50,586 nucleotides of DNA from an uncultured Acidobacteriota bacterium (lineage in GTDB: Bacteria; Acidobacteriota; Thermoanaerobaculia; Multivoradales; JAHEKO01). A model generated the notes under the pieces. The model made no database searches and had not been told where the DNA came from. It was given only the letters and a program-made list of their open reading frames with translations. The position numbers were made by a program, and so were the translations under genes. Location of the stretch: positions 1-50,586 of the forward strand of contig CAVQNG010000010.1 in the NCBI GenBank assembly GCA_963713825.1. The letters run 5' to 3'. Positions 4,703-49,069 of the stretch are shown in pieces; position 1 is the stretch's first letter; every line of letters starts with the position of its first letter.

Positions 4703-4735
4703 CTGACACCCCCTGACACTGCCCCCAGCTAGTCT
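4703..4735 (+). promoter_or_regulatory. CTGACA direct-repeat promoter/operator upstream of WYL gene 1
   Basis: CTGACA-N4-CTGACAC-N10-TAGTCT; same architecture as at 32992 and 44981. Confidence 0.55.
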
Positions 4736-4744
4736 CTCTGCCAG

Positions 4745-4811
4745 TTGAAGCGGCCGGCGCCTCTGCCGGCCGGGGCGGGCGGTGGCGTAGGGGCGGGGCT
4801 TGCCCCCGCCC
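4745..4811 (+). repeat. REP-like palindromes (a TGAAGCGGCCG hairpin plus a GTAG-type REP)
   Basis: TTGAAGCGGCCGGCGCCTCTGCCGGCCG and GTAGGGGCGGGGCTTGCCCCCGCCC (4787-4811); related copies elsewhere in the window. Confidence 0.75.
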
Positions 4812-4926
4812 GCTCGGTGTGGCTGGCGAACCCTGTGGCCCCCGCCATTGCGCCCCACCCCTTCGGGTGGCAGCCTAGCGCCACGGATTTGTTACCTTTT
4901 GGAGGTCACAACAAAGAGGGCCCTTT

Positions 4927-5874
4927 ATGGCAAAGATGCCCCGCTCCGCACGGCTCTTCGGGGTCGTGAATCTGCTGGCCGGCCGCAAGGCCCGCTCGAT
5001 CGATGAGATCGCCGATCGATTCGACATCTCCGTGCGCACTGCCTATCGCGACCTAGCCGACCTCTCCGAGCAGCACGTGCCCATCTACCACGACGAGCAC
5101 GGCTACAAGCTTATGGAGACGGCCACCCTGAAGCCACTCAACCTCACCACCGAGGAGCACGCCCTGCTCAAGGTCGCCCTCCACAACCCGGCTCTGCGGC
5201 ACCAGCCGGCCCTGCTCCAGCGCCTCGAAGCCCTGGAGATGAAGCTCGACGCCGCCATCGCCATGGCCGAGGAGTCGCCCCAGGCCCTGCAGCTCGCCCC
5301 GGTCGACCGCTCCGGCCCCCAGGCCAAGGATGCCCTCGAGCCCCTGCGCCTGGCCATCCAGAAGCGCCAGTCGGTGGAGATCCAGTACCACTCGCTCTCC
5401 GGCACACGTAAACGCTGGCGCGGCATCGACCCCTGGCAGGTCTTCCAGCGCTCCGAGGCCTGGTACCTGGTGGGCCACTGCCACGAGAACACCGAGCCCC
5501 GCACCTTCCGCCTCGACCGCATCGGCGGCGTCAAAGGCCTGGACACGACCTACGAGATCCCCGACGACTTCGACCTCGAAAGCCACCTCCAGGACTCCTG
5601 GAAACTCATCAAGGGCGAGGGCACCTACGACGTCGTCCTCCACTTCGACCCCTCCCTCGCCCCCCTCATCCTCAACGCCCGCCACCACCCCAGCGAAACC
5701 ACCCAAGAGCTCCCTAACGGCACAATCGAGTACCGCATTCAGCTCTCCAGCCTGGAGGAGATTTCCAGGTGGATTGTGGGATTTGGGGGGAAGTGTCGGG
5801 TGGTGGGGCCGATCACCCTTTCAGAATCGGTGGATTCCATCGCCAGGGCAGTGATTGCAGACAGAAACGAGTGA
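4927..5874 (+). CDS. HTH-WYL-WCX transcriptional regulator (YafY/PafB-C-like), copy 1
   Basis: wHTH SVRTAYRDLADL; WYL domain AWYLVGHC...RTFRLDRI; C-terminal WIVGFGGKCRVVGP. Confidence 0.95.
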   Translation: MAKMPRSARLFGVVNLLAGRKARSIDEIADRFDISVRTAYRDLADLSEQHVPIYHDEHGYKLMETATLKPLNLTTEEHALLKVALHNPALRHQPALLQRLEALEMKLDAAIAMAEESPQALQLAPVDRSGPQAKDALEPLRLAIQKRQSVEIQYHSLSGTRKRWRGIDPWQVFQRSEAWYLVGHCHENTEPRTFRLDRIGGVKGLDTTYEIPDDFDLESHLQDSWKLIKGEGTYDVVLHFDPSLAPLILNARHHPSETTQELPNGTIEYRIQLSSLEEISRWIVGFGGKCRVVGPITLSESVDSIARAVIADRNE

Positions 5875-5908
5875 TCAAGCAGGACTGGCACATTTTCCGA
5901 TCCAGAAG

Positions 5909-48128: not shown

Positions 48129-48354
48129 CGCGAGGGTGCGTCGAGGCAGTGAATCGGTCCCACTGCGCAGATTACCTCTCATTCGCCTTGTCATGACCGA
48201 GCCGAGCAAACCACGAGGGCGCCGGCCGCTTCACGGATCTATTGGGCGAAAGCAGGAATCGAGAGAATTCTGGCGGAGACAGACAAGGACCCCGACGTCG
48301 ATGACTGAGCGCAGAGCCGAACCCGCAGCGACCGGGGTCCGATGGGATGATCTC

Positions 48355-48583
48355 TCAGGTGTTTTCTCGCACCCGGATTCGCCGTTCATCCACAACCCAC
48401 AGAGCACCTGTCAACACGTCGGTTTCCAGAGCAACCAAGAGACGCTTCGTTACATCAAGGACTGTCCGCTTGTCTTGGCGGGCCAATCGGAAAACGATGA
48501 TTCCTGGATGGGAGCCGGGGGGATACGCCTGGATGTCGGAAAAGTCGGTATCGAGGGAGGTTTTCGTCAATCTTGAAGAGCAC
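48355..48583 (-). pseudogene. DUF5615 PIN-like toxin with an internal deletion
   Basis: VLFKIDENLP joined out of frame to LDTDFSDIQAYPPGSHPGIIVFRL; the central part expected for this family is absent. Confidence 0.8.
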
Positions 48584-48590
48584 GGTTCTG

Positions 48591-48818
48591 TCAGGCCGGA
48601 AGAGCCACGACGCGCTCCCGGGCGAGCTCTGCTGCGTAAGCGATTGCGGCGTTGATGGCGCCAACGTCTAGAGTTGGATAGCTCCGCAGGACCGAGTCGG
48701 TACTTTCACCAGCCGCGAGGTTGTCGAGAACCACGGAAACGAGAATCCTGGTTCCCTGAAAACAGGCTCTTCCGTGACAGATGCTTGGATCGACCGTGAT
48801 GTACTCTCGCCAATTCAT
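48591..48818 (-). CDS. DUF433 antitoxin
   Basis: [31 protein letters not shown]...YPTL...AAIAYAA. Confidence 0.92.
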
Positions 48819-49030
48819 GATCGCGAACTCCTGCCTACCATTATAGGGGTGGCTGGGAGAGACACCTAACCTGAATTGCTCTGAGGGAGGAATTCGGACA
48901 CCCTAACTGGATTGCTTCTGAGCTCCACGGCATCTGGCGGAGAGAGACGAAGAATCCGGGTTTCAGCTCTACCATTCGGCCGCCACAGGTGCGGCCGCAT
49001 CAGCAAGTTGATCAGGTGCCAGGCACATTC

Positions 49031-49069
49031 ACTGTCGGAAATTGACAGCGAGTCGGTGCAGAATAGGCT
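49031..49069 (+). promoter_or_regulatory. Palindromic operator/promoter of the ADP-ribosylglycohydrolase gene
   Basis: ACTGTCG-N5-TGACAG-N10-CAGAAT; also reads TTGACA-N16-TAGGCT. Confidence 0.6.

Follow-up and report, generated by a model that had tools for sequence, protein, structure and literature searches.

Introduction

Several regulators with a WYL domain have been described that bind DNA at or near promoters. PafBC binds tGTCgg-N10-tA-N3-T, with its helix-turn-helix (HTH) domain at -23 to -28 (PMC8635444), and is reported to be the only heterodimeric case (PMC11804915). DriD binds ATACGAC-N7-GTCGTAT over the place of the -35 element, at a constant distance from the -10 element of promoters that lack a -35 (PMC13004042), and its residues R37 and R41 read two guanines of GTC, the middle base being weakly contacted (PMC10853764). 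DdaA of the Moraxellaceae binds CGWCA-N5-TGWCG (PMC12392091). BrxR and CapW are defence-associated homodimers of winged HTH, WYL and WCX domains, with an RWHVR motif in the WYL domain; each occupies a palindrome of about 20 bp in its own promoter until single-stranded DNA (ssDNA) releases it (PMC11662680). Here we describe a short DNA element, hereafter the box, that recurs ahead of defence-type genes in a stretch of 50,586 nucleotides (the window) from an uncultured Acidobacteriota bacterium, together with the WYL proteins encoded in the same stretch.

Judged from sequence, the system comes closest to DriD in how it would bind DNA and to PafBC in register, with targets reminiscent of the DdaA and BrxR/CapW systems. 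Among the papers on WYL proteins, phosphorothioation, defence islands and regulons that were viewed by title and abstract, none describes a dispersed WYL regulon of islands. We consider it moderately probable that island-borne, DriD/PafBC-like WYL activators drive, through the box, a defence regulon that extends over several islands.

A box at a fixed distance from a -10-like hexamer

The window is the entire contig C10 of the host genome, G000, which comprises 5.42 Mb in 38 contigs (61% G+C, 96% complete). C2, C3, C5, C21 and C22 are other contigs of G000, the remaining G numbers are compared genomes, and L numbers denote loci. An initial annotation of the window had proposed nine intergenic promoter sites, in an inverted and a direct-repeat form, as the regulon of twin PafBC-like WYL proteins. 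Each of the nine is present at the position given there and lies between genes. Eight make up a single strong family, but the ninth, at 43538, is weak and stays unconfirmed, since it reads TGTCAG-N10-CAAGAT as written, with TGGCA as its distal half and with the disfavoured T in the proximal half. The sites are the following, with weight-matrix scores for the box in brackets.

4701–4735, plus strand: direct box, proximal half TGACAC, with TAGTCT at N10; predicted promoter of the WYL1 gene (25.4 bits)
16627–16661, plus: inverted box with TAGCGT at N10; predicted promoter of a small HTH gene (16750–17001) and sspABCD (27.8 bits)
32990–33023, plus: direct box with TACAAT at N9; predicted promoter of SAM-I/IV riboswitch 1 (28.5 bits)
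42639–42687, both strands: palindromic box with two divergent promoters (22.3 and 21.5 bits); on the minus side TAGCCT at N10, towards the AddB-like/UvrD-like operon 34957–42503; on the plus side CACTTT at N10, towards a gene for 238 amino acids (aa), 42736–43452
43527–43559, plus: weak, doubtful site TGGCA-N5-TGTCAG-N10-CAAGAT (below 13 bits)
44301–44354, both: palindromic box with divergent promoters (19.9 and 23.6 bits); on the plus side CAGGAT at N10 (or TAGGCT at N15), towards 44369–44905; on the minus side CATACT at N10, towards the Rap1a-like gene 43751–44215
44979–45012, plus: direct box with TACAAT at N9; predicted promoter of SAM-I/IV riboswitch 2 (27.5 bits)
46847–46900, both: palindromic box between divergent genes (28.8 and 21.2 bits); on the plus side CACAAT at N10 (or TAGGTT at N15), towards 46947–47549; on the minus side, towards 46487–46837, the hexamer GAGGAT does not fit YANNNT
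49030–49069, plus: inverted box with CAGAAT at N10 (or TAGGCT at N15); predicted promoter of the ADP-ribosylglycohydrolase gene 49082–50206 (22.6 bits)

The unit at 46847–46900 has two paralogous copies on C2 and one in G002.

The strong sites follow one consensus, (C)ACTGWCRG-N3-YTGACAS(T), then 10 nt (9 at the riboswitch promoters) and then YANNNT. The inverted and direct forms, both present as proposed, differ solely at the centre of the distal pentamer, which is TGTCA or TGACA respectively and is followed in both by N5 and TGACA, and are therefore one motif rather than two. In the window TGACAG-N10-YANNNT is found 6 times where 0.52 are expected, and none of 100 shuffles attains this number. 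TGTCR-N5-TGACAG has 8 matches at 5 loci against 0.04, and the unified core CTGWCR-N4-YTGACA, with 0.05 expected, has 11 at 8 loci, a number again attained by none of 100 shuffles. Over the whole genome, the strict 17-mer has 22 matches versus 1 for its back-to-front control, and a weight matrix built from 18 distinct sites gives 29 matches of at least 20 bits versus 1 in the reversed genome, although this matrix was made from the sites of G000, where its scores are partly circular, and the reversed genome shares words with the motif, so that the window shuffles and the back-to-front control are the independent measures. The predicted enrichment over background thus holds for the extended box in both window and genome. 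Looser patterns are not enriched genome-wide: CTGTC-N7-GACAG has 11 matches versus 3–11 at other spacings, and TGWCR-N5-TGACA has 42 versus 13–58.

The distance between box and hexamer is rigid. Counted in the genome on both strands, the strict box has 28 matches, 18 with YANNNT at N10 and three at N9 (21 of 28 together). Every other spacing from N5 to N16 is found in at most one strict box, save N15 with four, which are the alternative TAGGYT hexamers of sites already counted at N10. Boxes with T, G or C as the proximal middle base have the hexamer at N10 in 0 of 7, 0 of 7 and 0 of 4 cases, and on the strand of the gene that follows, the proximal pentamer invariably reads TGACA. Read from the aligned sites, the consensus has no -35 element at 16–18 nt from the hexamer, and most box promoters lack a -35 or extended -10. 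The box is, as had been proposed, an element of promoter type at a fixed distance from a -10-like hexamer. In orthologous promoters of a Ser/Thr kinase with TPR repeats from five genomes, the box and a TAGCCT or TACCCT hexamer are kept while the N3 and N10 spacers vary in sequence.

The palindromic form is mostly flanked by divergent genes (window positions 42655, 44318 and 46862, C3 position 1896965, and locus L094 of G009), and the direct form lies ahead of single genes (WYL, riboswitch, kinase and ARPP-1); no clear divergent gene accompanies the palindromes at 16628 and 49031. This pattern fits a rule by which TGACA must face the gene.

WYL proteins with the box in their own promoters

G000 has exactly three WYL-domain genes, with 88–90% mutual identity.

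4927–5874, plus strand: WYL1, 315 aa, HTH_11-WYL-WCX (Pfam)
13939–14886, plus: WYL2, 90% identical to WYL1
C2 41395–42339: the third paralog

Both window proteins have HTH_11, WYL and WCX in this order. The WYL1 gene and the C2 paralog are preceded by the box, TAGNNT at N10 and a conserved leader, of about 190 nt from promoter to ATG at 4927 in the case of WYL1, and the same box and leader occur ahead of a WYL gene of G004 and on the metagenome contig L118. The leaders span 4736–4926 of the window, 42340–42510 of C2 (minus strand), 1–205 of G004 contig C26 (minus) and 2906–3073 of L118. They contain an invariant hairpin, CCACCC-N4-GGGTGG, kept even in G033 at 60% protein identity. Covariation does not support the leader of about 200 nt as a structured RNA (consensus fold, covariation term +1.23 kcal/mol). 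This region is lost at WYL2, where the upstream DNA (13116–13938) holds an SspD fragment (13265–13684, minus strand) and a transposase remnant, the latter read by eye; the fragment and the apparent remnant would account for a WYL2 gene without the box and without most of the leader.

The nearest named record for the WYL protein belongs to a metagenome-assembled genome of the Thermoanaerobaculia (48% identity). In a sequence search of the PDB, WYL1 matched PafBC best (1.2e-19), followed by DriD (1.5e-13), and no BrxR or CapW chain was returned at E-values up to 0.01. A structure model of WYL1 with a mean pLDDT (predicted local distance difference test) of 72.8 was compared by Foldseek, which gave DriD at 7.6e-18, PafBC at 8.1e-15, CapW at 5.9e-10 and BrxR at 4.1e-9; the TM-scores (template modelling scores) are low because the domain arrangement was not modelled. 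Between HTH and WYL, where activators of the DriD type have a three-helix bundle, the model places helices at residues 75–85, 94–112 and 133–145, with pLDDT below 50 at 67–80 and 106–128. Residues R37 and R41 of the recognition helix align with R37 and R41 of DriD and are invariant in 10 of 10 clade members, and the ssDNA contacts Y168, Y192, R204 and R207 of DriD align with Y154, Y180, R192 and R195. The motif FRLDR of WYL1 is like WRLDR of DriD, and the repressors have RWHVR at this place. By sequence search and structure model, WYL1 is nearer to the activators DriD and PafBC than to the repressors CapW and BrxR.

The association between box and WYL genes extends to related genomes, including some of other genera. 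Among the WYL genes at least 59% identical to WYL1 that have upstream DNA, eight of nine have a box upstream: WYL1, the C2 paralog, those of G004, L118 and G009, and three in G033. The orthologs in G009 and G033 share 59–63% identity with WYL1, and the fragment on L118 is 90% identical. G004 at first seemed to have no WYL gene, but its contig C26 ends nine codons into one, behind the same box and leader. A wider survey of 135 loci with WYL relatives (1.36 Mb) gave matches of at least 17 bits at the two closest only, L118 (three) and L001 (one, just downstream of a WYL relative of 48% identity); the other 133, with relatives 21–38% identical in the best aligned segment, have no match at this threshold. 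G006 combines a WYL relative of 51% identity with one box, and none of the main conclusions depends on this genome; G045 has one CGTCG-N5-TGTCG upstream of its WYL relative. In the flanks examined, no other DNA-binding gene consistently adjoins the box or the WYL genes. The WYL proteins are hence the sole DNA-binding proteins that consistently adjoin the box, and their own genes carry it, in agreement with the regulators first suggested, but they do not constitute a pair of the PafB/PafC type.

Comparison with described WYL systems

PafBC has the same HTH-WYL-WCX architecture and the same register, a 6-mer with G2 and C4 followed by N10 and YA-N3-T, in promoters that also lack a -35; the equivalence of TGACAG-N10-YA-N3-T with the published tGTCgg-N10-tA-N3-T, drawn in the initial annotation, is borne out. 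Yet the PafBC element reads tGTCgg where the box has TGACAG, and the box has a second half-site upstream. The two subunits of the PafBC heterodimer are described as divergent, and DNA contact is made by only one of them, at a single half-site, whereas here there are two half-sites; the PafBC subunits are encoded in tandem, whereas the three closely similar paralogs lie at separate loci (4927, 13939 and C2 41395). PafBC is further described to control recA and about 150 damage genes, in contrast to a box that is absent from recA and lexA and precedes defence genes. A linkage with the Pup-proteasome is a defining trait of PafBC, and the Pup ligase family PF03136 was not found in G000 at its 96% completeness, with a positive control in Corynebacterium. 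On the strength of these sequence comparisons, the box system is not PafBC.

DriD is the best fold match of WYL1, and the two share a homodimer-type organization, R37/R41 and most of the ssDNA-contact residues. In activators of the DriD type, ssDNA switches on both DNA binding and activation. Both systems have two half-sites with GAC/GTC triplets seven bases apart (the box core reads GWC-N7-GAC), placed where a -35 would be, with constant spacing to the -10, in promoters without a -35, the start sites being predicted here. A readout of the DriD type, with R37 and R41 on the guanines and a weak contact to the middle base, would explain why G and C are fixed and W is free in the distal half. The differences are an identity of about 25%, flanks that read ATACGAC rather than CTGWCAG, and a small chromosomal regulon of damage and cell-division genes rather than one of mobile defence islands. 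The direct form and the direction-specific proximal half seen here are not described in the available text on DriD.

The homodimer DdaA likewise recognizes two pentamers separated by N5, with a central W, and restriction-modification and CRISPR-Cas genes are among its direct activation targets, but its site lies about 50 bp upstream of the start, whereas the box is centred near -31. DdaA is a chromosomal SOS replacement that includes recA among its targets, whereas here LexA and RecA are present and their genes lack the box. Finally, BrxR and CapW share with the present proteins the domain architecture, the association with islands and with defence systems of various kinds, and the placing of a site within the promoter of the regulator gene itself; they differ in repressing the adjacent operon, in weaker matches with WYL1 and in their RWHVR motif, which WYL1 lacks.

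Distribution of the box and candidate regulon

At 19 bits or more there are 22 loci in G000, 21 of them within six regions: eight on C10, four on C2, three on C3 (within 24 kb near the contig end) and two each on C5, C21 and C22. The remaining locus lies inside an open reading frame (ORF) of 426 codons on C3 and is probably a chance match. At least four of the six regions carry defence or conflict genes. After paralogous promoters are collapsed, at least 11 unrelated promoter contexts remain, as follows.

1: the WYL genes
2: the ssp operon
3: the SAM riboswitch units
4: the AddB-like operon with the divergent 238-aa gene
5: 44369–44905 with the divergent Rap1a-like gene
6: a family of 200-aa genes with a divergent small gene
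7: the ADP-ribosylglycohydrolase gene
8: ARPP-1
9: a small ORF and the Ser/Thr kinase-TPR gene
10 and 11: two unknown gene pairs on C3

In relatives the box also precedes Cas4-Cas1, a beta-lactamase-like gene and a methyltransferase gene. The first of these cases is in G046, a genome of the same order, where a full box with TAGGCT at N10 (contig C5, 1017350; locus L088) stands ahead of a Cas4-Cas1 fusion gene. G000 contains three copies of an element of about 22 kb (C5 80262–102025, C21 14586–36459 and C22 14716–34747), each bounded by the box promoter of ARPP-1 and that of the small ORF and the kinase. Positions 43500–50586 of the window are mirrored by the start of C2 (1–10300), which has the riboswitch, ADP-ribosylglycohydrolase genes, the 200-aa gene, the Rap1a-like gene and TerB and, in addition, a Fic gene. 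In another part of the same contig, the WYL paralog stands at the head of a NucS-like gene, a type I restriction-modification system, SIR2 and Mrr.

Both recA and lexA are present in G000, but their best upstream box scores are 8.1 and 1.8 bits versus at least 19 for real sites, and the box does not therefore mark a general damage regulon. The candidate targets are defence or conflict genes, which corrects the LexA-independent defence and damage regulon first proposed.

Riboswitches behind the box

The sequences behind the sites at 32992 and 44981 had been taken for a novel RNA. They are SAM-I/IV riboswitches, a known class (Rfam RF01725, gathering score 41.1), with four aptamers in the genome above that score.

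33026–33146, plus strand: aptamer 1 (52.4 bits)
45015–45138, plus: aptamer 2 (48 bits), ahead of a gene starting near 45254
C3, about 1898069–1898191, minus: aptamer (53.4 bits)
C2 6–128, minus: aptamer (49.6 bits)

All four lie behind a box promoter in regions of defence type, a setting that is unusual for a SAM riboswitch; the C2 and C3 copies have TACAAT or TACAAA at N9. A conserved terminator-like hairpin and T-run follow the three aptamers with readable downstream DNA (two in the window and that on C3), which suggests control by termination. The downstream genes belong to no known family; the product of 45254–45760 is 70% identical to that of the C3 copy, which weakly matches a double-zinc-ribbon. 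The box-carrying region near the end of C3 also holds a c-di-GMP-I riboswitch (RF01051, 45.3 bits; about 1892712–1892806, minus strand).

Gene content of the window

The window is a defence island, and its G+C content at 6–37 kb (0.51–0.60) is under the genome mean of 0.613. Besides the genes already mentioned, it encodes the following.

5855–8122, plus strand: 755-aa protein with alpha-CTD-like (RNA polymerase alpha C-terminal domain) and sigma-70 region 4 domains, overlapping the WYL1 stop codon
17029–25795, plus: operon of sspA, sspB, sspC and sspD, then a 210-aa ORF, then a DndB/DGQHR-like protein, downstream of the box at 16627
34957–36861, minus: HD-domain protein
within the window: a PD-T4-6-like Ser/Thr kinase with TPR repeats (defence scan, Pfam/PADLOC)
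within the window: a PD-(D/E)XK protein and an HD/kinase protein, after the AddB-like/UvrD-like pair
within the island: a NERD-UvrD helicase and a TerB protein

The ssp label of the genes behind the site at 16628 is confirmed by PADLOC, which identifies SspA (1.4e-128), SspB (1.6e-107), SspC (1.7e-165) and SspD (3.3e-91), all four encoded together. Adjoining SspABCD are PbeA-like (10929–13115) and PbeC-like (8581–10716) genes, both on the minus strand, with two small ORFs (8119–13115 in all), and a degenerate box at 13182, with its distal half alone intact (13.8 bits), lies 67 nt ahead of the PbeA-like start. Two other labels could not be upheld. The 178-aa product of 44369–44905, behind the site at 44318, had been called HD and matches no family, so that this label is unverified. 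The pair behind 42639–42687, which had been named addBA, scores far below the AddA/RecB equivalog cut-offs. In mycobacteria, the adnAB repair genes are under PafBC control.

The 755-aa protein, with its alpha-CTD-like domain at residues 97–141 and its sigma-70 region 4 domain at residues 262–310, is probably co-transcribed cargo of WYL1. Atlas clusters of 50–84 members combine the same two kinds of domain, some with HARE-HTH in addition, and the protein weakly matches the sigma factor of the MZA anti-phage system; it might act as a decoy against phage factors directed at the polymerase. Third-codon G+C is 0.79–0.88 in the two window WYL genes (4927–5874, 13939–14886), the ADP-ribosylglycohydrolase gene (49082–50206) and a kinase gene (785–3781), against about 0.55–0.65 in the adjoining defence genes, which suggests different histories of genes within the island.

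Discussion

The motif, its rigid spacing, its distribution and the family of the neighbouring proteins are established observations. Since most box promoters lack a -35, the regulator most likely works as an activator, by recruiting or adapting the housekeeping RNA polymerase, and the WYL proteins are its best candidates. We infer their binding to the box, the sense of the control (activation rather than repression) and the ligand from the evidence above and from the described homologs.

Several points weigh against this explanation, in addition to the partial circularity of the matrix scores. WYL2 has no box promoter. The same-genus assemblies G002, G003 and G005 (84, 87 and 70% complete) have three, two and two strict boxes, with full box promoters ahead of kinase, ARPP-1 and 200-aa genes, and neither a WYL domain nor the WYL leader was found in these incomplete assemblies; G024 also has three strict-box matches and no WYL gene, although two of its loci, when examined, showed no convincing -10. 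Both the WYL clade and the box are patchy within one bacterial family, so that clade and taxon are confounded. Among the WYL genes at 48–51% identity (G058, G044, G045 and L001), none of the four examined has a box upstream, and these relatives keep the recognition helix of WYL1, so the helix alone does not explain the specificity. For five promoters, including three in the window, an ordinary TTGACA-N16-TAGGYT reading is available as well. Finally, the defence-linked WYL regulators known so far, BrxR and CapW, are repressors according to the available text of their account (PMC11662680).

This precedent of palindromes in the regulator's own promoter, released by ssDNA, supports the most direct rival: the same WYL proteins would bind the box as repressors of the BrxR/CapW type on promoters with a -10 only, leaving upon ssDNA. 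The box does occur in the regulators' own promoters, over core positions where a bound protein could block the polymerase; the five sites with a canonical TTGACA-N16-TAGGYT could fire unaided, and box genes in assemblies without a WYL gene are easier to understand if their promoters are self-sufficient. However, an operator needs neither a -10 spacing exact to 1 bp nor a direction-specific proximal half, the majority of sites have no -35 or extended -10 with which to fire, WYL1 resembles the activators DriD and PafBC more than it does CapW and BrxR and lacks RWHVR, and the known repressors act on the adjacent operon and not on 20 or more dispersed promoters. We thus regard repression as unlikely. 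It is less likely again that another factor reads the box, the WYL genes being mere members of the regulon, whether this factor is a regulator of the host family, the XRE-type HTH protein encoded at 4084–4551 or the sigma4/alpha-CTD protein encoded at 5855–8122. The boxes of G002, G003, G005 and G024 would speak for it, as would the likeness of YTGACA to the -35 word read by sigma region 4 and the presence of a 94% identical copy of the XRE gene on the box-carrying C2. But no XRE gene lies beside the WYL orthologs in the flanks examined, and the sigma4/alpha-CTD protein is rejected as the box reader, for it has no ortholog in any of the five box-carrying relatives searched (G004, G009, G033, G002 and G005), where weak matches only were obtained, to apparent housekeeping sigma and alpha genes. 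An alternative sigma factor is rejected too, because half-sites about 11 and 21 nt from the hexamer are unusable as a -35 by a factor of the sigma-70 family. The geometry GWC-N7-GWC and a helix with R-x3-R fit the WYL family specifically, and in G004 the apparent absence of a WYL gene proved to be a cut at a contig end.

A last alternative, which we find very improbable, dispenses with a dedicated regulator and regards the box as the upstream portion of promoter cassettes, ordinary or duplicated, that gene duplication inside mobile islands has spread. Many sites are indeed paralogs of one another (the riboswitch unit occurs four times, the kinase, ARPP-1 and 200-aa promoters occur three times each, and the WYL promoter twice), and the three window sites with TTGACA-N16-TAGGYT fit this idea. 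Against it stand the at least 11 contexts with unrelated flanks and unrelated downstream genes, the maintenance of the box across genomes and genera while spacers vary, and the unrelated box genes of relatives (Cas4-Cas1, beta-lactamase-like and methyltransferase). The Shine-Dalgarno sequences at 49030 and 44315 lie 40–49 nt past the box start; given the usual distance from -10 to start, transcription directed by TAGGCT would begin within or beyond them, whereas with the N10 hexamer they would remain part of the mRNA, which mildly favours the N10 hexamer.

For the WYL activators that we favour, the most plausible mechanism would take the box as the DNA site of WYL1, WYL2 and the C2 paralog. 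The GWC triplets of TGWCA-N5-TGACA are separated by one helical turn, and each would receive one winged-helix domain of a dimer. With YANNNT as the -10, the winged helices would sit near -36 and -26, on half-sites that span about -38 to -34 (distal) and -28 to -24 (proximal), the latter in the register of the -26 element of PafBC, and the box would cover the -35 place as in DriD. The dimer would thereby replace the missing -35 contact and help the housekeeping polymerase onto weak hexamers such as TAGCCT or CANNAT. The trigger would be a nucleic-acid signal bound by the WYL domain, probably ssDNA arising from phage attack or DNA damage. The resulting regulon would comprise the regulators' own operons and at least 11 unrelated contexts over several islands, including SspABCD, the AddB/UvrD-like operon, the ADP-ribosylglycohydrolase, the Rap1a-like protein, the Ser/Thr kinase-TPR, ARPP-1 and the four units gated by SAM riboswitches.

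A more ambitious version of this mechanism is speculative and, taken as a whole, rather improbable. The islands would carry their own alarm circuit, in which mobile, multi-copy WYL activators fire more than 20 promoters on ssDNA. The four units with a SAM riboswitch would act as a two-signal AND gate, with transcription passing the terminator only at low S-adenosylmethionine (SAM), as after the action of a SAM-degrading phage enzyme, so that particular effectors would be deployed upon nucleic-acid damage and SAM depletion together. A palindromic box would let one dimer serve two divergent promoters, and a direct box a single one.

How anti-phage islands are regulated is little understood. Among the WYL proteins studied so far, those linked with defence, BrxR and CapW, are local repressors, and the activators, PafBC, DriD and DdaA, are chromosomal regulators of the damage response. 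The box is short, rigid and easily mutated, which makes the idea directly testable with purified protein and reporter fusions. If it is true, mobile islands would bring with them a shared induction circuit, in which island-borne, multi-copy WYL proteins act in trans on unrelated modules, and the box would offer a simple signature for finding co-regulated, as yet unnamed defence genes in uncultured bacteria.

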